A DNA stretch of 6,575 bases. Origin: a virus (taxonomy: Duplodnaviria > Heunggongvirae > Uroviricota > Caudoviricetes). Positions 1-6,575 of the stretch are shown here, piece after piece (within the stretch, counting starts at the first letter, position 1; each line of letters begins with the position of its first letter). The stretch is from positions 1 to 6,575 of IMG/VR virus record IMGVR_UViG_2531839588_000017. The stretch is one strand, 5' to 3'. Below the pieces are notes generated by a model, which saw only the letters and a program-made list of their open reading frames with translations, ran no database searches and was not told the origin of the DNA. The translations under genes and the position numbers were made by a program.

Positions 1-75
1 AGGGTATTGATCGTTTTAATCGATAGATAAATCAATATCTATCTGTTTAACAGATCGATTATTAGGGTAAACATG

Positions 76-99
76 AAAAAACACCCGTGAAGGGTGTTT
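76..99 (-). terminator. Rho-independent terminator downstream of parR
   Basis: Perfect 8-bp stem (plus 79-86 AAACACCC / 92-99 GGGTGTTT, loop GTGAA) which on the minus-strand transcript is followed by a U-run (plus 76-80 A-run). It lies within about 10 nt of the parR stop codon (105-107). Confidence 0.5.
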
Positions 100-104
100 G
101 TAGG

Positions 105-419
105 TTATTCTGGGAAAAACTCCTGAATGTTCCTTTTTAACTGGCTCTTACTGTGACTGTTTTCTGTTGCAGATGTGCCAGTATGCTTGTTTCGGATGTT
201 ATTTCTTGGTGGTATTGCTTCCTCTTCCTGCCATTCAGCCAGCCAGTAAGCAAAGGCGGGATCGCTTTTAATAAGCGCCAGTCCAGCCAGAAATGCCGCG
301 CGTTGCGCGCGGCTGCGTTCGGAGGCTGGCAGGCTGTCGAGATAATTACACGCTTCTCGTTCACTCTTGACGGCTGCTGGCTTCAGATAGAAACTTATCC
401 GTCTGGTTGGAGTCGTCAT
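105..419 (-). CDS. parR: ParR/StbB-like partition adaptor (centromere-binding protein), 104 aa
   Basis: Sub-ORF of the 105..554 track ORF, starting at the ATG at 417-419. An AAGGAG Shine-Dalgarno sits 7 nt upstream and the start is 4 nt after the parM stop. Translation MTTPTRRISFYLKP...LDSLPASERSRAQRAAFLAGLAL resembles the N-terminal DNA-binding region of plasmid R1 ParR as I recall it (LDSIPQGERSRLNRAALTAGLAL). The upstream part of the 149-aa track ORF overlaps parM and is not used. Confidence 0.75.
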   Translation of the reverse strand: MTTPTRRISFYLKPAAVKSEREACNYLDSLPASERSRAQRAAFLAGLALIKSDPAFAYWLAEWQEEEAIPPRNNIRNKHTGTSATENSHSKSQLKRNIQEFFPE

Positions 420-423
420 TGGT

Positions 424-1382
424 TTACTCCTTGTCCATTGCGTACAGCCCATTAACCAGAGCAAACTGTGGCACCCCGTCCGCGATGAAAGTCGCATTAA
501 CTCCGCAGGCTTCGCGGATAGCGGGTGCCACAATCTCCGCCCCGCCACCGACAACCATCACCCGCCCGTAACCCGAAAACCCCGCCAGCGCGCGGATCAC
601 TCGTTGTTTCAGTGTTTCTTCCTTTTCACGAATAACCGCCATCAGGCTGGCGTAATGCGCGTCATTGTGGATGTGCTGGCGCAACCAGGCTTCATCATGG
701 CGATGTTCGATAATGGTATTGGCGATGTGGTGACTGGTGCGCATACCGTTAGTGGCCATCACCGACAGTACGGCATCGGCCATCAGGGAAACGCCTACGT
801 GTGGATCGCAAAACACCTGGCTGATACCTGCCAGTTGTCCCTGAACCTTTGCCACATCCAGCGTGGTTCCGCCTAAATCCACAATCAGCAGGGATTCAAA
901 CGGACTCATGTCAGCCAGTGCTTTAAAACCAGCCGGAATGGATTCAGGCATAACCCGTACGTTACGGATAGTGAATGCTTTTCCGTTCTGGTACGCCACC
1001 GGGCGCATGACGTTGCTTTTTTGCGGTTGATGTTGGCCATGTCCGGCTGTGCGTTTGTGTCGAAATACTCGCTCAGTGGCAGGGTGACAACCACATCCAC
1101 TTCCTGTGGTGTGATGCCTGATTTGACCAGCGCGTGATGAATGGCAATTACATTCACATCGCTGTACTGGTATTGCGTGTCGGTCGTCTGGACAAAGCGA
1201 TCGCTGACCGGATCAAAACCATAGCGCACGCCATCAAGCATGTAGTTCGCGGGCTGCGTGCCACCGAACGGCGCAGACCATTCCGACTTGAAGCTGTTCG
1301 GGCTGATGGCGTTGCGGCGTTCGCCGTTCTCAGTCCATGCCAGCTTGATGTTGGTGGAGCCGTCGTCGATACAAATTTTCAT
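424..1382 (-). pseudogene. parM: ParM/StbA-like actin-type segregation ATPase interrupted by one frameshift (fragments 906..1382 and 424..1008)
   Basis: N-terminal fragment MKICIDDGSTNIKL... carries the phosphate-1 motif DDGST; C-terminal fragment carries phosphate-2 IVDLGGTTLDV and the adenosine motif VVGGGAEIV. Both fragments match R1 ParM from recall. The frame changes right after ...NINRKK at the plus-strand T6 run 1017-1022; one extra base there restores a single ORF of about 319 aa. AAGGA Shine-Dalgarno 9 nt upstream of the ATG at 1382. Confidence 0.75.
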
Positions 1383-1406
1383 GTCGCTTTTCCTTATGTT
1401 GATTAA

Positions 1407-2003
1407 TTAATCGGTTACAGGATTTTTAAATCCCGCTTTTGCCTGTTTTGTGCGCGCTTCATATATCGCGGCGCGTTTTTGCTCATTTACGGGATTTGTG
1501 AGTCCCGTTTCTGTCTGTTTTTTGTTTCCACTGGTCAGGCCACCCCGCAGCAGGTCTGCTTTGCGGTGGGCGCGTTCAGTGGTTTCACTGATTCTCTGTG
1601 CGTGCTCTGCGTCACGGATGGCGCGCAGCATGTCAGAAAGCACGGTAACGGGGGTTTTCATGGTGTTCTGGTCCTGCTGAAGTGTGGATGCCAGACGTGC
1701 GGCGGCTTCGGGGTCTGATGCCCCCAGTTGTTCCAGATAGCTGGCGACCGGGTTATGGCGGATCTCTGTGCTGCTTACGCCGTGATTACGGCTCAGGCGC
1801 TGCCAGAGCTGCGTGATTCGGCTGTCCGGGCGGGTATCCGGTTTGCGTACAATTTCAAATCCCTGCGGTGCAATGATGCTGCCGTCAACGTACAGGCTGC
1901 CGCCCCGTAACAGGTGCTGCATCTGCTGTTCACCGATATGCAGGCCGAGAGATTCAGCAGACTCCCGCCATTCTTTAGCGAGTAATTCGTGGTTATCAGG
2001 CAA
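1407..2003 (-). CDS. Hypothetical protein (198-aa ORF); may be the displaced C-terminus of the gpA-like gene and/or contain a separate small gene
   Basis: Open frame ending 24 nt upstream of parM. The track start is a TTG and the same frame has stops immediately upstream (2004-2144), so the true start is unclear. An internal ATG at 1659-1661 (MKTPVTVLSDMLRAIRDAEH...) could start an 84-aa product. The 3' end overlaps dyad repeats that may be parMR control sites. Confidence 0.4.
   Translation of the reverse strand: MPDNHELLAKEWRESAESLGLHIGEQQMQHLLRGGSLYVDGSIIAPQGFEIVRKPDTRPDSRITQLWQRLSRNHGVSSTEIRHNPVASYLEQLGASDPEAAARLASTLQQDQNTMKTPVTVLSDMLRAIRDAEHAQRISETTERAHRKADLLRGGLTSGNKKQTETGLTNPVNEQKRAAIYEARTKQAKAGFKNPVTD
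1420..1507 (-). promoter_or_regulatory. Candidate parMR promoter/operator or centromere-like sites (two dyad-symmetric 16-bp motifs)
   Basis: GGATTT-N5-TCCCG occurs twice (1420-1435 and 1492-1507), each internally dyad-symmetric (GGATTT/AAATCC; CGGGA/TCCCG), 40-125 bp upstream of the parM start. There is no conventional intergenic region upstream of parM to hold a parC-type site. Confidence 0.25.
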
Positions 2004-2533
2004 AGGCCGCTGCTGTTTGCGGCTCTGTGTCCAGTCTGCATTTCATCACTGCTGTTTTTTGCCTGTTTGTCACGAGCGAACGCATCAGCGCCCGGCGTTC
2101 GTGCCGTTTCAGTGAGCGCACCATTCGTTCACTCAACGCCGTCAGGAGCTGCGGCCACGGTGCTGGCCGTTCTTCCGGCTGTTCTGTCCCGTTGTTGTCG
2201 TTTCCTGTACACGGGGACAGTTATTGCCACGAGTCCAAGGGGCGGCAGGGCCGCCCTGAAGGTCAAAACCATTTTCGCGGGCGCTGTCTTCCGCTTCCGG
2301 TTTACGTCTTACCAGCTTCCAGTTATCCGGATGCGTGCACACCGGGAGATCCCCGATGAGGGCGACCAGATCCCGTAAATCTGTACGCTCTGTTCGCCGT
2401 AATCGTTCAGCCATCGCGAGGTCGTAGGCGGTGCGAATCAGGTAGTCTTGCGGGAACAAGTACGCCCCCTGTTTTCATGTAGGGGCAAAACACCGGCATC
2501 AGCGGCAGCGAGTACCGCATCCATTGCGTCTCT
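2001..2533 (-). pseudogene. C-terminal remnant of the gpA-like replication initiator, split over at least two frames
   Basis: Protein-like translation continues from the core ORF in another frame (2460-2535: ...WMRYSLPLMPVFCPYMKTGGVLVP), then in a third frame (2459 down to about 2240: QDYLIRTAYDLAMAERLRRTERTDLRDLVALIGDLPVCTHPDNWKLVRRKPEAEDSARENGFDL). In-frame stops at 2142-2144 and below interrupt that frame, while a different frame is open from 2238 to 2001. Confidence 0.35.
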
Positions 2534-3469
2534 TCAGCGTTGCGGGCCTTCCGGGTTGCGTGCCATCTGGCTGGCAAGGCGGCGCAGTTCACGCCACACC
2601 TGACGGGAGGGGATGCCAAAGAACTGGAACTGGCGGACCCGGTGAAGGCGCGCCCAGCCGATGGCGCGCTCCACGCTCTCGGCCATTGATTTTCCGGTTT
2701 CGTGGTCAACGCGTGGTTTGCCCGTTTTCGGGTCGATTCCATCCACGGCGCGGCTGTCCAGGTTTTTTCCGATGTAGGTGGCGATGTAGCTGGTTGGCGT
2801 GCCTTTGGAGCCGTCGACGTACTCCACCTTAAAGCGCGGAGTAATATCATTGCCCAGCTCGTGGCGGTCTTCCTGAATGGCAATATCGCGGGTGATGGCC
2901 ACGATGCTGTCGATTTCTTCCGGATGAGCAAAGACCATCATATGCCAGTGCACGGTGCCGTCATGGTGAGGCTCCACCGTGCGGATGCCATACCAGCGCA
3001 GGCCGTCGCGGTTCAGTTTTTTGCGGACCGCCGCAAAAAACGTGTTAACCAGGTAATCGCTGGAGTCGCGCATGGTGGCCCCGTTCCATTTGGGATTCGG
3101 ATGACCGTTCTCTGTTGTGGCGTGGTATTTTGACGGGCAGGTGACAGTCAGAAACACCGCTTTGTCGCCACGGGCTTCGGCCAGAAGTTCCAGTCCCTTC
3201 ATGGTGGCCATCATTTCTGCCTTACGGTGAACCGGGTTACTTACTCCCGCGTAATACACCGTCTCGAGATCAATCGTGAACCCGTCTTCATTTTCCAGCA
3301 TGAAACTTTTCAGGAAATCGCGTGTTTTCTCGCGCTGTGCGCGAAACTCGCTTAACGCGTCCTGGCTCAGATAGGGTGATGTTTTTCTGGAAACCAGACA
3401 GGCGGCGCGGAGTTGTTCTTCTCTCCACTCCAACGTAACAGCCACAGTTTGCGTTTCCACCATCCGCAC
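2534..3469 (-). CDS. Rolling-circle replication initiator, P2 gpA / phiX174 A family (HUH endonuclease core, 311-aa fragment)
   Basis: Contains ...TCPSKYH..., the HUH motif VEPHHDGTVHWHMMVF (about 2942-2950) and the paired catalytic tyrosines SYIATYIGKN (YxxxY, about 2774-2788), followed by ...QVWRELRRL. The track start is a GTG with an in-frame TGA directly upstream (3473-3475), so the ORF looks N-terminally truncated. Confidence 0.75.
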   Translation of the reverse strand: MRMVETQTVAVTLEWREEQLRAACLVSRKTSPYLSQDALSEFRAQREKTRDFLKSFMLENEDGFTIDLETVYYAGVSNPVHRKAEMMATMKGLELLAEARGDKAVFLTVTCPSKYHATTENGHPNPKWNGATMRDSSDYLVNTFFAAVRKKLNRDGLRWYGIRTVEPHHDGTVHWHMMVFAHPEEIDSIVAITRDIAIQEDRHELGNDITPRFKVEYVDGSKGTPTSYIATYIGKNLDSRAVDGIDPKTGKPRVDHETGKSMAESVERAIGWARLHRVRQFQFFGIPSRQVWRELRRLASQMARNPEGPQR

Positions 3470-3678
3470 AGGTCAGGCGAAGGATTGCGCCCGGCAGCAG
3501 TCCGTTCCGGTTCGCTCTTGTTCAGGCTCTAATGTGGGGCATGGTGCAGGGTAAGCATCGGCCAGCATCGTAGCCTTCACTTACATCCATGGTCAGTCGC
3601 CATCTGCCCAACCATCCAGAGTTCAAGGTGCTGCTGAACATGCCGCGTCATGGTGGCCAGCGTCTGTATCTGGTGTTG

Positions 3679-4215
3679 TTAGCTGCGGCAGGTAAAGCAA
3701 ATCGTCCAGGCGTTCGCGCCGGCAAGGGAGCGATAACCCGGTGTCAGCCAGGCGTCGTGCGTCCAGACGTTCGAATATTTTGCGCAGGGTTCCGGGCTAG
3801 CGTTCGCCTGCCAGCTCTTTTTGCCTTTCCGGCGATCGCTTCCTGTTTTTTGCGCAGGAAAGAGAGGTGGCGAATAAGCGGATCGCGCAGATAGGACAGG
3901 CAGTGCCTTTAGTGTGGCAAAGGCACGGGCTACTGGGTCTTGTTCTGTTGCCCGGCGCTTACTGATGATGCTCTGTGCCAGCTTTTCACGCTGTCCGGCT
4001 TCCTCAAGGGATGCCATGAGTTTTTTACCCATGGCGGATTGTGCGAAAAAGGCTTCTTCCTTCGCTTCCTGTTCTTCCTGTGCCCTTTTGTCTGCCTCAA
4101 GGTAGTAACGGATGGCGCGTTGCAGGTCGGTTTCAGTTTCCTGCCTGCGCTCCGTAAACCTGGCCGGATCAATGGCTGGCCGTGGTTCATTCCAGCTCCA
4201 TGCAAACTCGCTCAT
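3679..4215 (-). CDS. Probable N-terminal fragment of the gpA-like replication gene (hypothetical protein if independent)
   Basis: Sub-ORF of the 3679..4242 track ORF, starting at the ATG at 4213-4215, which overlaps the TGA stop of the upstream 129-aa ORF (ATGA). The first 100 or so residues are protein-like (MSEFAWSWNEPRPAIDPARFTERRQETETDLQRAIRYYLEADKRAQEEQEAKEEAFFAQS...); the distal part is low-complexity, suggesting frame loss before the stop at 3679. Assignment to gpA is by position and inference only. Confidence 0.4.
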   Translation of the reverse strand: MSEFAWSWNEPRPAIDPARFTERRQETETDLQRAIRYYLEADKRAQEEQEAKEEAFFAQSAMGKKLMASLEEAGQREKLAQSIISKRRATEQDPVARAFATLKALPVLSARSAYSPPLFPAQKTGSDRRKGKKSWQANASPEPCAKYSNVWTHDAWLTPGYRSLAGANAWTICFTCRS

Positions 4216-4601
4216 GGCTGGTATCCCGTCACGCGCTGCCACTCCTGCGAGAAGATGGCGGAAAGGCGGTTAAATTCAGCGGTGTATTCACTCAGCGAGG
4301 CACACCCGCCAGCAGTGCGATGCGCCAGCATTGCCGCGAATACGGAGGCCGGGGAGTCGTAATACGCCAGCAGTGATTCGCCGTGTGGTGTCAGGCAGTG
4401 CAACGCCAGCCCGTGTGGTGTGAAGTCCACGCGGTAGCAGTCGTCTACTGTGAAATAAAGGGTGTCCGCATTCTCCGGTTTTGTGGTGCGTGCTCTGTTG
4501 TCACGACCACGGATGTAGAGATCAAATAATCCCTGAAGAATGGGAGCCAGACGGGTGTCCTGTGTGCGCACCCATCTTGTGAAGTCATGAGCGTCAATCA
4601 T
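4212..4601 (-). CDS. Hypothetical protein, 129 aa
   Basis: ATG at 4599-4601 with a weak AAAGAG Shine-Dalgarno about 10 nt upstream; stop overlaps the next ORF's ATG (ATGA at 4212-4215). Protein-like composition (MIDAHDFTRWVRTQDTRLAPILQGLFDLYIRGRDN...). No family recognised. Confidence 0.55.
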   Translation of the reverse strand: MIDAHDFTRWVRTQDTRLAPILQGLFDLYIRGRDNRARTTKPENADTLYFTVDDCYRVDFTPHGLALHCLTPHGESLLAYYDSPASVFAAMLAHRTAGGCASLSEYTAEFNRLSAIFSQEWQRVTGYQP

Positions 4602-4673
4602 GCTGCAATTCTCTTTACTACAGATGTGCGAAGGCCTCCCGCCGCAAGGTGCAGGAAAGGCCTGGAACAGGAA

Positions 4674-4904
4674 TTAATGGAGTTTGTTTTGCTGCTGAAA
4701 GAGCTGCTGAAGCTCGCGCAGATCATCCGCCAGATAGCTGAAAACAGCGGATGAATAGAGGTTTGAAAGTTCGCAGCTACGCTCATGCAGCATATTGATG
4801 TGCATGATTTTAGCGACGCGGAATGCGCGGGAAAGTCTGCGGTTGATTTCAGTCTGGATGTGACGACGCTCCGCGATAGCGCGGTGCTGTTTGCGGTTTG
4901 CCAT
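4674..4904 (-). CDS. Small basic protein, 76 aa; first ORF downstream of the antisense-RNA locus (positional analogue of P1 icd / P4 epsilon, identity not established)
   Basis: ATG at 4902-4904 preceded by AGAGG about 9 nt upstream and a 6-bp hairpin (4925-4930 / 4939-4944). Translation MANRKQHRAIAERRHIQTEINRRLSRAFRVAKIMHINMLHERSCELSNLYSSAVFSYLADDLRELQQLFQQQNKLH. Confidence 0.55.
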   Translation of the reverse strand: MANRKQHRAIAERRHIQTEINRRLSRAFRVAKIMHINMLHERSCELSNLYSSAVFSYLADDLRELQQLFQQQNKLH

Positions 4905-4950
4905 GGTGTTTGGCCTCTTCGTTTGTGAGTTTTTGGATACTCACCAACCA

Positions 4951-4968
4951 GAGTTGAGAATCTCGGGG
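4951..4968 (-). promoter_or_regulatory. Sense target site C for the antisense RNA (transcript 5'-CCCCGAGAUUCUCAAC-3')
   Basis: Plus-strand GAGTTGAGAATCTCGGGG. Shares GTTGAGAATC(C/T)CGG with the copy at 5127-5143 and is complementary to the B element at 4981-4993. Lies about 50 nt upstream of the 76-aa ORF start. Confidence 0.4.
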
Positions 4969-4976
4969 TGGCGAGA

Positions 4977-5038
4977 CGTACGGGGTTCTCAACACCGGCA
5001 AACGAAGAAACCGGCCCGACCGAAGTCGGCCCCGTACG
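4977..5038 (-). ncRNA. Candidate c4/CI-like antisense immunity RNA (structured core)
   Basis: Minus-strand transcript has a 9-bp closing stem (CGUACGGGG at 5038-5030 pairing with CCCCGUACG at 4985-4977) enclosing a CCGAC-UUCG-GUCGG tetraloop hairpin, a short CCGG/CCGG hairpin, and the element GUUGAGAA, which is complementary to the two flanking AUUCUCAAC sites. No protein-like ORF in the segment. Confidence 0.45.
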
Positions 5039-5086
5039 CCCCACCATAATTCGTGTGCGAAAAAGACGTGGCAATACAGTACGCAC

Positions 5087-5107
5087 AAAAAAACCGCTGG
5101 CGCGGTT
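5087..5107 (-). terminator. Intrinsic terminator between sense site A and the RNA core
   Basis: Minus-strand hairpin AACCGC-GCCA-GCGGTT (plus 5092-5107) followed by a U-run (plus A-run 5087-5093), about 120 nt downstream of the predicted end of the 99-aa gene. Confidence 0.45.
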
Positions 5108-5126
5108 GTGCGCTTCGTTTGTCAGC

Positions 5127-5143
5127 AGGTTGAGAATCCCGGC
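5127..5143 (-). promoter_or_regulatory. Sense target site A for the antisense RNA (transcript 5'-CCGGGAUUCUCAACC-3')
   Basis: Plus-strand AGGTTGAGAATCCCGG; 12 of 13 positions complementary to the B element, same orientation as site C. Confidence 0.4.
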
Positions 5144-5229
5144 ACCCGTTTTATGAGGTGCAGCAGAAATGTAACCTGACTGATTGCGGCATGGCAAGCG
5201 GTTTTTTTGTGTGTGCATGCTCTGATTTC

Positions 5230-5530
5230 TTACTGGTTCAGAAAAAAAATCAAAAACCTTGTCAATGCGTTGCAACAGCTCTTGCTGTATTGCTTCCGGC
5301 GTTTCCGGTTCGCCTGGCGCCTCCAATGTCGCGCAGAAATCAGCGATTTCATGATGGAGCGTCAGGCGAATGGCAGGAGCCGTGGTTCTGGCGTGCTCCA
5401 GCTCATCCAGCAATGCCAGCACCGCAGACGGCGAGAGCATTGCGCGAAATGCCAGTAATTTTTGAGGTGTTGCCATTCGTTGCAGGGCAAATGCCAGTTC
5501 GCGTAGCTTCTGGTGGTTGATGGTGCTCAT
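5230..5530 (-). CDS. Hypothetical protein, about 99 aa (the literal ORF runs on to 4598 with no stop)
   Basis: ATG at 5528-5530 overlaps the TGA of the upstream wHTH gene (ATGA). The first 96 residues are protein-like (MSTINHQKLRELAFALQRMATPQKLLAFRAMLSPSAVLALLDELEHARTT...QQELLQRIDKVFDFF). After the plus-strand A8 run at 5242-5249 the translation turns low-complexity (S/T/R-rich) and crosses the RNA locus and the 76-aa gene. One base fewer in the run gives ...DFFLNQ-stop at 5230-5232. The end coordinate is inferred. Confidence 0.45.
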
Positions 5531-5793
5531 GTTCTGGCTTCCTTCAGTAGCTGGTTAAACATGTGAGTAAGTGGATTGCTACACCCGAACGGCATCGGGT
5601 TTACGTGGTAAGAAGCCTGGCCTCCAGTTTTGCGAGCGCGACCACCTGTGCTGCGGTTTGTTCTGATGACTAAGCCGCCGCGCCAAAGTTGGCGTAACTC
5701 AGCATTAATGGCTGTGGTTGGAGTATTCAGTGCTGCTGCGATTTCTCCGCCGCTACAACCCGGATGGGTAGCGATGTAGTCCAGAATGGTCAT
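5527..5793 (-). CDS. Winged helix-turn-helix DNA-binding protein, 88 aa
   Basis: ATG at 5791-5793 overlaps the stop of the upstream 67-aa ORF (ATGA). LDYIATHPGCSGGEIAAALNTPTTAINAELRQLWRGGLVIRT has the helix-turn-helix-wing pattern of MarR/ArsR-like wHTH proteins. Confidence 0.6.
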   Translation of the reverse strand: MTILDYIATHPGCSGGEIAAALNTPTTAINAELRQLWRGGLVIRTNRSTGGRARKTGGQASYHVNPMPFGCSNPLTHMFNQLLKEART

Positions 5794-5993
5794 CTGCGTG
5801 GCTCCTGTACCTGTCGGATAAGATTCACCCGCGCCACGTTGGTGGCGCAGAAATAAGTGCCGTCAGTGAGGTAGATGTGGTGTGCATCCTTTTCCGAACG
5901 ATGTTTGTCGATAGTGGTAATCAGTCGTTCGTCGACCTCGTATTCGCGCCCTCTGGAGGTAAAGCGAACGACGGGAAAATGCTTAATTGCCAT
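5790..5993 (-). CDS. Hypothetical small protein, 67 aa
   Basis: ATG at 5991-5993 with AAAGGGGG Shine-Dalgarno 5-6 nt upstream; stop overlaps the next ATG. Translation MAIKHFPVVRFTSRGREYEVDERLITTIDKHRSEKDAHHIYLTDGTYFCATNVARVNLIRQVQEPRR; no family recognised. Confidence 0.55.
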   Translation of the reverse strand: MAIKHFPVVRFTSRGREYEVDERLITTIDKHRSEKDAHHIYLTDGTYFCATNVARVNLIRQVQEPRR

Positions 5994-6016
5994 TGCGCCC
6001 CCTTTGTCCAGTAACC

Positions 6017-6427
6017 CTATGCGTTAAATACGGTGTGTCGGGCGTCATCAATGAATGCAACTTGAGAGCGCTCTATCAGGCGGAGATTTGTCAGAATTTC
6101 TGATTCCCTTATGGGGTGAGGAGTGATCAGGTATTTATCCTGTAACCCGGCGATAATGGTGTATCGCTGTAGCTCCGAGCCAATTGTGTAAATAAGGCGT
6201 CCGGTGTTAGACAAATCCAGTCCGGTGACTGGTTGTGTTCTGAGAACCGCCAGTTCAGCATCCTGTTTTGCGATAATTTCGGCTGCTTCTGCCGTGACTC
6301 TTGCGACTATCAGTGTGTGGGTTGCGACGTCCATATGATTATTTGCTAGGGCTTTTTTCGCTACTTCGTTTTCTGTCTTTGAAATTTCTTTCAGTGCTCT
6401 GATGATACCTTCTTCTTTTGCGTGCAT
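6017..6427 (-). CDS. Hypothetical protein, 136 aa (first gene of the leftward small-protein operon)
   Basis: ATG at 6425-6427 with GGAG about 9 nt upstream, directly downstream of an AT-rich intergenic region. Protein-like, helix-rich composition (MHAKEEGIIRALKEISKTENEVAKKALANNHMDVATHTLIVARVTAEAAEIIAKQDAELAVLRTQ...); no family recognised. Confidence 0.6.
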   Translation of the reverse strand: MHAKEEGIIRALKEISKTENEVAKKALANNHMDVATHTLIVARVTAEAAEIIAKQDAELAVLRTQPVTGLDLSNTGRLIYTIGSELQRYTIIAGLQDKYLITPHPIRESEILTNLRLIERSQVAFIDDARHTVFNA

Positions 6428-6575
6428 TTTTGTATCTCCGTTATTTGCGTGTGCGAATACCTCCGTTAATACGGATGGTTTTCACGTTTTCTTATTTAAT
6501 TTGATGTTTTATTTGTATCGTTATTCACCAGTGAAAAAACGTTCAATCTTTTTTACTGAATGAATAATTCGCATA
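6428..6575 (-). promoter_or_regulatory. AT-rich upstream control region, presumed promoter/operator for the leftward operon
   Basis: AT-rich non-coding stretch upstream of the first minus-strand gene. Contains a direct repeat CTCCGTTA (6436-6443 and 6461-6468) and a short dyad CCGT-TAAT-ACGG (6463-6474); several sigma70-like hexamers are possible but none is clearly best. Confidence 0.3.

Follow-up and report, generated by a model that had tools for sequence, protein, structure and literature searches.

The replication gene and its layout

The window analysed here is a stretch of 6,575 nucleotides that makes up the entire contig APWZ01000690.1 of the draft assembly GCA_000358755.2, which comprises at least 690 contigs. 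A search of the window for letters other than A, C, G and T found none. On the minus strand, positions 1459–4215 are collinear with the 2,826-nt intact CDS of two relatives (L001 and L002) and with the 2,823-nt CDS of phage P88. By its similarity to these homologues, the gene is classed as an ordinary replication endonuclease of the P88 type (Xuanwuvirus, P2 gpA family), predicted to work as an HUH rolling-circle Rep. The same gene is present in Escherichia phage P88 (replication endonuclease YP_009113059.1; Xuanwuvirus, Peduoviridae) and in E. coli prophages (e.g., WP_478283478.1 and WP_113450213.1). Gene order is also the same as in the window (hypothetical gene, Rep, ParM, partition protein), with 93–98% nucleotide identity across it. 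In these relatives Rep is one continuous ORF of 940–941 codons, whereas in the window copy 70 bases are missing, at 62 sites, and one base is added. Relative to the intact homologues, the features of the locus are as follows.

1459–4215, minus strand: P88-type gpA-family replication endonuclease gene at its full, lesion-free extent (941 codons plus stop), collinear with intact homologues
4215–4213, minus strand: ATG start codon of the Rep gene
3894–4215, minus strand: N-terminal segment (CDS 1–320), in the true frame and with zero lesions in the alignment and block table
3431–3893, minus strand: lesion cluster 2 (CDS about 320–831), with 39 deletion events and the sole insertion (at 3893)
2539–3430, minus strand: lesion-free core (CDS 832–1723), inside the 311-aa ORF at 2534–3469 and matching Phage_GPA profile positions 87–321
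2930–2953, minus strand: HUH metal-binding motif VHWHMMVF (aa 437–444 of the repaired protein), aligned with HWHMMLF of P2 gpA
2765–2791, minus strand: paired-tyrosine motif SYIATYIGK (Y-x-x-x-Y; aa 491–499 of the repaired protein), aligned with GYIAKYISK of P2 gpA
2035–2538, minus strand: lesion cluster 1 (CDS 1724–2248), with 22 deletion events
2217–2246, minus strand: ori-like region inside the Rep gene, lesion-free (GCCGCCCCTTGGACTCGTGGCAATAACTGT, unique in the window)
1481–2034, minus strand: C-terminal segment (CDS 2249–2803), lesion-free in the block table and forming the bulk of a 198-aa ORF
1476–1480, minus strand: homopolymer lesion (A5, against A6 in 79 relatives), after which the last 7 codons are shifted and the ORF runs on to 1407
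1461–1459, minus strand: true TGA stop codon of the Rep gene
424–1382, minus strand: ParM gene, adjoining Rep and broken into two ORFs by one lost base at 1012–1014

A preliminary description of this DNA had singled out the 311-aa ORF as the core of a gpA-type Rep. The boundaries and motifs that it gave are correct: the ORF follows an in-frame stop (3473–3475), ends at a stop (2534–2536) and contains VHWHMMVF and SYIATYIGK at the positions listed above. We also confirmed the coupled start at 4215, where the ATG and the stop codon of the preceding ORF share bases in ATGA, and the continuation of homologous coding sequence in other frames on both sides of the core. The family assignment is likewise borne out by similarity searches. 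The Phage_GPA profile (PF05840; 321 positions, curated cut-off 31.4 bits) matched the 311-aa ORF with 346 bits (E = 1.9e-103), over profile positions 87–321; the intact Rep of L001 matched over positions 1–321 with 431 bits. Thus, the core described as intact does hold both motifs, but it covers only positions 87–321 of the 321, and the first 86 lie in the scrambled N-terminal cluster. The frame that opens at 4215 had been read correctly down to 3894; from there to its end at 3679, that 187-aa ORF is in the wrong frame. The 198-aa ORF does not mark the end of the gene at 1407, because the true stop lies at 1459–1461 and the last ~24 residues (after ...NEQK) are out-of-frame read-through.

We compared the P88-type protein with P2 gpA (NP_046795.1, 761 aa), the founding member of Phage_GPA and an HUH rolling-circle initiator that nicks an ori inside its own gene. 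The intact 941-aa homologue and P2 gpA are 31% identical over aa 98–745 (E = 9e-83), an alignment that extends well past the core on both sides. The gpA homology that the preliminary description had proposed to look for outside 2534–3469 is therefore present. Both motifs align (HWHMMVF with HWHMMLF, YIATYIGK with YIAKYISK). Compared with P2 gpA, the P88-type protein has about 180 aa more; it starts with ~97 additional residues and ends in a ~195-aa tail that has no Pfam match. Intact proteins of this clade have 913–941 aa, not the 700–760 aa assumed earlier for the family; P2 gpA itself has 761 aa. The C-terminal segment at 1481–2034 gave zero Pfam matches and is kept in all relatives compared.

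Could the 311-aa ORF be a naturally short, stand-alone Rep-domain protein between unrelated genes? It has both catalytic motifs and a strong Phage_GPA match, as such a protein would. However, its flanks are collinear with the N-terminal and C-terminal portions of the intact 941-aa gene; gaps aside, nucleotide identity is about 97%. The homology to P2 gpA covers aa 98–745. In addition, the Pfam domain is represented in the ORF only from position 87 onward, and a form this short was seen in no relative. Flank collinearity and P2 gpA homology already refute this reading, and we give it practically no weight.

Gene A of P2 contains the annotated nick site of that phage. The window has, at the corresponding point of the protein, the 30-base string GCCGCCCCTTGGACTCGTGGCAATAACTGT, which matches the P2 nick-site string at 25 of 30 bases in a direct comparison, a likeness of sequence alone. 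This region (2217–2246, minus strand) is probably the homologue of the P2 ori, with the origin nick site in it.

Lesions and natural polymorphism

We scored the lesions of the Rep gene against intact relatives, placing gaps by pairwise alignment with equivalence sets; the MAFFT row had merged neighbouring 1-nt gaps. The preliminary description was right that the gene carries multiple lesions, but they are far more than a handful: 62 deletion events and 1 insertion, in two dense clusters that flank the lesion-free core, plus the homopolymer site at 1476–1480. The deletions remove 1 nt in 56 cases, 2 nt in 4 and 3 nt in 2 (70 nt in total). All four bases are about equally represented among those deleted (A19, G18, T18, C15). 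Where the codon phase of a deletion could be placed unambiguously, 30 of 36 events fell at third positions. About 5 events lie in runs of at least 3 identical bases, and homopolymer errors were rejected for all the others; Dam/Dcm methylation-motif errors were also rejected, as 1 of the 70 deleted bases is in GATC and 0 of 70 in CCWGG. The A5 lesion at 1476–1480 is the sole homopolymer-type lesion on an essentially monomorphic site. The only insertion, at 3893, falls where two allele types are offset.

Outside Rep, one further lesion was found in the neighbouring gene. ParM is an unbroken 960-nt CDS in relatives, and the base missing from the window at 1012–1014 varies among them, being T in L001 but C in L002 and L087. 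The ParM lesion is of the same kind as those in Rep. All other genes, at 3894–6575, are without lesions relative to L001. The products called on the deposited contig are fragments only, of 178, 309, 105, 42 and 198 aa.

The deletions follow the natural variation of the gene. Among 83 intact relatives, 59 of the 62 events fall on variable columns (null mean 28, maximum 41) and 54 of 62 on columns with a minor allele frequency (MAF) of at least 0.05 (null 15, maximum 28). The other 3 of 62 hit columns that are monomorphic in this sample, a point against an allele-based origin. The excess holds when the null is restricted to each region: 34 of 39 events on MAF ≥ 0.05 columns in cluster 2 (null 9.7, maximum 20) and 20 of 22 in cluster 1 (null 3.3, maximum 10). 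Substitutions relative to the nearest relatives show the reverse pattern, with 1 inside cluster 2 and 4 inside cluster 1 versus 7–17 per clean segment. Inside the clusters, SNPs have turned into gaps. Against the sample of relatives, the Rep gene has no window-private substitution and no nonsense codon. When the lost bases were put back in silico, the result was an ORF without an internal stop, encoding a 941-aa protein 98.7% identical to that of L001, the nearest relative.

In three-way alignments, the gaps coincide with differences between L001 and L076 and between L001 and L004: the gaps of cluster 2 match L001-versus-L076 differences, and in CDS 1941–2248, 6 of 6 gaps are at L001-versus-L004 differences. 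We modelled the clusters as the intersection of two natural alleles from which discordant bases are dropped. Inside the clusters, this pair-intersection model reproduced the window to an edit distance of 17, compared with 69 for the best single allele and 64–77 for random-deletion controls. Against this model, no one pair of sampled alleles reproduced the window exactly (the residual distance of 17), and the best-fitting second allele differs block by block, so the actual second allele is absent from our sample. The alleles of this gene are naturally mosaic. A pair that agrees in some segments and differs in others is thus expected, as is the change of second allele from block to block. Among relatives, variability of the gene is highest in CDS 1–320, yet this part has zero dropped bases; two templates would have to be identical there, which also speaks against the model. 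Taken together, the lesions fall where natural alleles differ, all of the retained sequence is natural and the gene can be restored.

We then asked whether any other genome carries the lesions. Rep is a single intact ORF of 913–941 aa in about 1,335 complete E. coli genomes, in phage P88 and in 80 IMG/VR contigs. In E. coli, copies were found at 1,491 places in 1,339 genomes, with up to 3 per genome, and the whole window matched up to 4 times per genome in complete E. coli. The preliminary description had raised the possibility that lesions are conserved at the same locus in related genomes; none shares them. The lesions in 3430–3900 were absent from all of the about 1,335 E. coli matches, in which 467 bases of the window align with 513 bases of the record at 80–90% identity. 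An exact lesion-bearing 51-mer from cluster 2 had no match in GTDB representative genomes, IMG/VR or JGI metagenomes. A 61-mer from a clean region of ParM matched 8 IMG/VR contigs and had no match in GTDB. The sister contig L087 is 99.2% identical to the window over 1–1395 only, and its end coincides exactly with that of Rep on the 3′ side.

Origin of the fragmented reading frame

These results strongly favour a collapsed-repeat or mixed-allele consensus artefact of the draft assembly, and not a pseudogene, as the cause of the Rep fragmentation. In this reading, the prophage replication module would have been represented in the reads by two mosaic, closely related alleles, which were merged into one consensus. 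A mixed culture, or two prophages in the same host, may have supplied them. We infer two templates in the reads and, likewise, a coverage above single-copy. Where the alleles agree, the consensus would be correct; where they differ, it would have left the base out or, in one place, emitted both. The outcome would be a string that is the intersection of two natural alleles, with 1-nt “deletions” at SNP sites, mostly synonymous third positions. With 454/Newbler-type consensus calling in flow space, a 50:50 mix gives each of the alternative flows a mean of 0.5, which is rounded to zero. Such a consensus is one candidate for the base-dropping step, and the stripping of ambiguity codes is another. 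Our search of the literature found no description of a consensus routine that drops discordant bases.

The preliminary description had offered two readings, of which the evidence supports the second, in a refined form. The first was a multiply disrupted replication pseudogene, as in a domesticated element that no longer replicates; in this view, Rep gained about 63 small indels in vivo while the prophage decayed or was domesticated. The deposited contig does encode fragments only, the adjoining ParM is frameshifted too, and bacterial pseudogenes have an established bias toward deletions. However, neutral decay should yield far more substitutions than indels, whereas Rep has 62 deletions with neither private substitutions nor nonsense codons, and substitutions are depleted exactly in the deletion-dense stretches. 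Mutation cannot target polymorphic columns and third codon positions, where the lesions sit, nor does decay account for a sequence that fits the intersection of two natural alleles. No E. coli genome among the 1,339, no GTDB representative and no contig of IMG/VR or the JGI metagenomes shares the lesions, and the other genes at 3894–6575 are lesion-free relative to L001. There is no evidence that the prophage is domesticated. We consider a genuine pseudogene very unlikely. The other reading, an intact gene obscured by indel errors, is the one borne out, once the errors are specified: bases would have been dropped where two natural alleles differ, not at random. An intact single-copy gene hidden by random sequencing or consensus errors (low coverage, homopolymer miscalls, methylation-motif errors of long reads) would fit a fragmented draft assembly in which nearly all lesions are 1-nt deletions, and the change from A6 to A5 at 1476–1480 is a classic homopolymer undercall. 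Yet random errors would not fall on naturally polymorphic columns, as 59 of 62 events do against a null maximum of 41, and random-deletion controls fail the intersection model. Nor would they be restricted to two clusters, with the 892-nt core and 2.7 kb downstream clean. This explanation is also very unlikely, if slightly less so than decay.

The deletions might also be real in the DNA of the strain. A heteroduplex between two co-resident prophage alleles, formed for example by gene conversion, could have had its mismatched nucleotides excised with no refill. This would be the only biological way to target allele-discordant sites and, if true, it would leave a “mismatch footprint” of 1-nt deletions by an undescribed mutational mechanism. 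We regard such an event as a long shot, below both decay and random error. The consensus artefact is thus the explanation we retain.

Implications and comparison with known assembly artefacts

For biology, the impact is small: the gene is a P2/P88-type replication initiator of a well-populated and already annotated group. The case calls for caution, because a draft contig with ~60 frameshifts might be described as carrying a split Rep or a degraded prophage. An artefact of this type can be recognised from sequence alone. Gaps sit on population-polymorphic third-codon positions, substitutions vanish where gaps are dense, private changes are zero, and the retained sequence is the intersection of two natural alleles. 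Surveys of pseudogenes and defective prophages that use old draft assemblies could apply these criteria to flag collapsed-repeat contigs.

The window resembles known collapsed-repeat and mixed-haplotype artefacts in that it derives from a multi-copy mobile element, forms a short contig of its own and has errors only where the copies differ. It departs from them in the form of the errors: collapsed repeats usually lead to a chimeric choice of one allele or to ambiguity codes, whereas here the discordant base is left out.

Fragmentation of the replication endonuclease gene

The window constitutes the early module for replication and partition of a P2-family prophage of the P88-like type (Xuanwuvirus, Peduoviridae). 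It matched 1,475 of 5,426 complete E. coli genomes (at least 80% of the window covered in 851; 92–98% identity), and phage P88 and related phage records matched as well. The closest annotated relatives carry, in order, the genes for a partition protein, ParM, the 'replication endonuclease', a hypothetical protein of 129 aa, a derepression protein and MarR, among others. The replication endonuclease (Rep) of these relatives is a single continuous CDS of 2826 nt (941 aa) in the close relatives L001 and L002 and of 2823 nt in phage P88. The window is the entire contig APWZ01000690.1 (6,575 bp; L092) of NCBI draft assembly GCA_000358755.2, whose annotation splits the Rep region into five fragments of 178, 309, 105, 42 and 198 aa. 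At its left end the relatives diverge (their matches begin at 109, 231 or 352), so the contig edge lies inside a variable, moron-type region.

A preliminary description had reported a gpA-type Rep in scattered parts. We found its 311-aa ORF at 2534–3469 (-), preceded by an in-frame stop at 3473–3475 and ended by the stop at 2534–2536, as well as both Rep motifs (VHWHMMVF at 2930–2953 and SYIATYIGK at 2765–2791) and an ATG at 4215 that is coupled with the upstream ORF by overlap with its stop (ATGA). The assignment to the gpA family was also correct (core ORF versus Pfam Phage_GPA, E = 1.9e-103). The catalytic core had been called intact, yet the domain is incomplete in the 311-aa ORF, which covers only positions 87–321 of the 321 in this profile. 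The expected length of 700–760 aa was too short, the intact protein of the window's clade having 913–941 aa, and the gene does not end at 1407: the real stop is 1459–1461, and an A6-to-A5 change at 1476–1480 shifts the frame and prolongs the ORF to 1407.

We placed the lesions by base-level alignment of the window to L001 and L002. Rather than a handful, Rep contains about 63: 62 pure deletion events (56 of 1 nt, four of 2 nt and two of 3 nt; 70 nt in total) and one insertion.

Lesions in Rep (CDS numbering follows the intact relative's coding sequence)
3431–3893 (-), cluster 2, CDS about 320–831: 39 deletions and the insertion
2035–2538 (-), cluster 1, CDS 1724–2248: 22 deletions
1476–1480 (-), isolated homopolymer lesion: A6 to A5

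Where lesions are densest, one base is lost per 2–5 nt. No indels relative to L001 were found in the 892-nt core (2539–3430), in the first 320 nt or last 555 nt of Rep, or at 3894–6575. The sole insertion, at 3893, lies at a site where two allele types are mutually offset; it resembles their union, not their intersection. The ParM gene at 424–1382 (-) lacks a single base at 1012–1014, which yields two overlapping ORFs (424–1008 and 906–1382); where the base is missing, relatives vary between T and C, and this lesion carries the same artefact signature as those in Rep.

Relative to L002, the window has one base more in an A-run at 5241 and one fewer in a C-run at 5997. Both differences are shared by L001, a complete genome, and thus represent natural lineage variation, not errors. 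Adjoining Rfam matches to C4 antisense RNA (79 bits) and isrK sRNA (62 bits) lie at 4964–5051 (-) and 5087–5161 (-). A 310-aa ORF at 4598–5530 (-), which the source assembly's annotation lists as a gene, spans both and also overlaps, in a different frame, the 76-aa 'derepression protein' ORF (4674–4904). Because L001 annotates the counterpart of 5243–5530 as a truncated ash pseudogene, probably only this Ash-like N-terminus is real.

Lesions and natural polymorphism

As a polymorphism reference we used an alignment of 83 intact relatives (L001–L003 and 80 IMG/VR loci), taking gap-placement ambiguity into account for each deletion event. Polymorphic columns held 59 of the 62 deletion events, whereas 2,000 trials of random placement averaged 28 and reached at most 41; columns with a minor-allele frequency of at least 0.05 held 54 (null mean 15, maximum 28). 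With the null restricted to each cluster, 34 of 39 events were observed in cluster 2 versus 9.7 (maximum 20), and 20 of 22 in cluster 1 versus 3.3 (maximum 10). Codon third positions accounted for 30 of the 36 unambiguously placed events. Substitutions relative to the nearest relatives numbered only 1 and 4 within the two clusters versus 7–17 per clean segment; SNPs are thus missing where the gaps are. Rep has no window-private substitutions. Restoring the L001 base at every gap gave a 941-aa ORF that is free of internal stops and 98.7% identical to the L001 protein.

Judged by sequence comparison, the lesion clusters are the intersection of two natural alleles. All 14 deletion events in CDS 661–740 and all four in CDS 741–831 fell at differences between the L001-type and L076-type alleles, and all six in CDS 1941–2248 at differences between L001 and a further natural allele, L004. 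Multi-base gaps were also reproduced: removing the discordant columns from GGTGCCAGAG and GGCGCGACCG left exactly the window's GGGCAG. We then modeled the window from pairs of natural alleles over 11 blocks, removing all discordant columns and summing the edit distance to the window. The sum was 17, versus 69 for the best single allele; the same search with the same number of deletions placed at random gave 64–77 (mean 68).

Origin of the lesions

The deposited sequence does contain Rep in scattered parts, which had been read either as a pseudogene or as an intact gene masked by errors. Several results contradict a true pseudogene: private substitutions and nonsense codons are lacking, the lesions target polymorphic sites and codon phase, substitutions are depleted within the clusters, and none of the other genomes and contigs searched has the lesions. 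No mutational process can target sites where other alleles of the population happen to differ. The second reading is supported and can be refined: the errors are allele-discordance drop-outs. Random sequencing indels would also obscure an intact gene, but the polymorphism and codon-phase statistics and the random-deletion control contradict them, and the lesions show no association with homopolymers or Dam/Dcm motifs. A naturally short Rep is excluded, because the window is collinear with the intact gene and homology to P2 gpA extends over aa 98–745.

Taken together, these results point to a consensus artefact that arose from a collapsed repeat or mixed strains; the fragmentation of Rep is no real feature of the organism, and its cause lies in the assembly. 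Lesions at allele-discordant sites are the automatic outcome of a consensus built from a two-allele mixture. As a contig, the window is short and stands alone in a draft assembly with at least 690 contigs; in complete genomes its module can be present in up to 3–4 copies. Because of the strong mosaicism of Rep alleles, a pair of copies can be identical in some segments and 5–20% divergent in others. We propose that two allelic copies of the module, from a collapsed repeat or mixed strains, would have been merged in one consensus and the discordant bases dropped. In a flow-space consensus (454/Newbler type), a 50:50 mix gives each alternative flow a value of ∼0.5, which is rounded down, and occasionally both are rounded up. 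Such a consensus is one candidate for the dropping step and would also fit the sole homopolymer undercall; alternatively, ambiguity codes may have been removed. A useful by-product is a sequence-only signature by which such artefact contigs can be recognized.

Positions 1–1396 of L087 (IMGVR_UViG_2534681761_000008), a contig of a sister draft genome, are 99.2% identical to window positions 1–1395, with all 10 mismatches within 787–1068. This contig breaks off precisely where Rep has its 3' end, so a second assembly likewise failed to get through the gene, a further pointer to an artefact.

Comparison with P2 and P88

By its Pfam domain, HUH motif, Y-x-x-x-Y tyrosines and collinear flanks, Rep belongs to the P2 gpA family. 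P88-like prophages have an annotated 'replication endonuclease' that is essentially identical to it, and the gene is nothing new. P88-type Rep is ∼180 aa longer than P2 gpA, with an N-terminal stretch of ∼97 aa (3925–4215 (-)) and a C-terminal tail of ∼195 aa (1459–2035 (-)) that have no P2 gpA counterpart; neither has a Pfam match, though both are conserved among relatives. The annotated nick-site region of the P2 ori resembles the window's GCCGCCCCTTGGACTCGTGGCAATAACTGT at 2217–2246 (-), with 25 of 30 bases alike at the equivalent protein position. This lesion-free stretch inside the Rep coding sequence is a probable origin-of-replication nick site.
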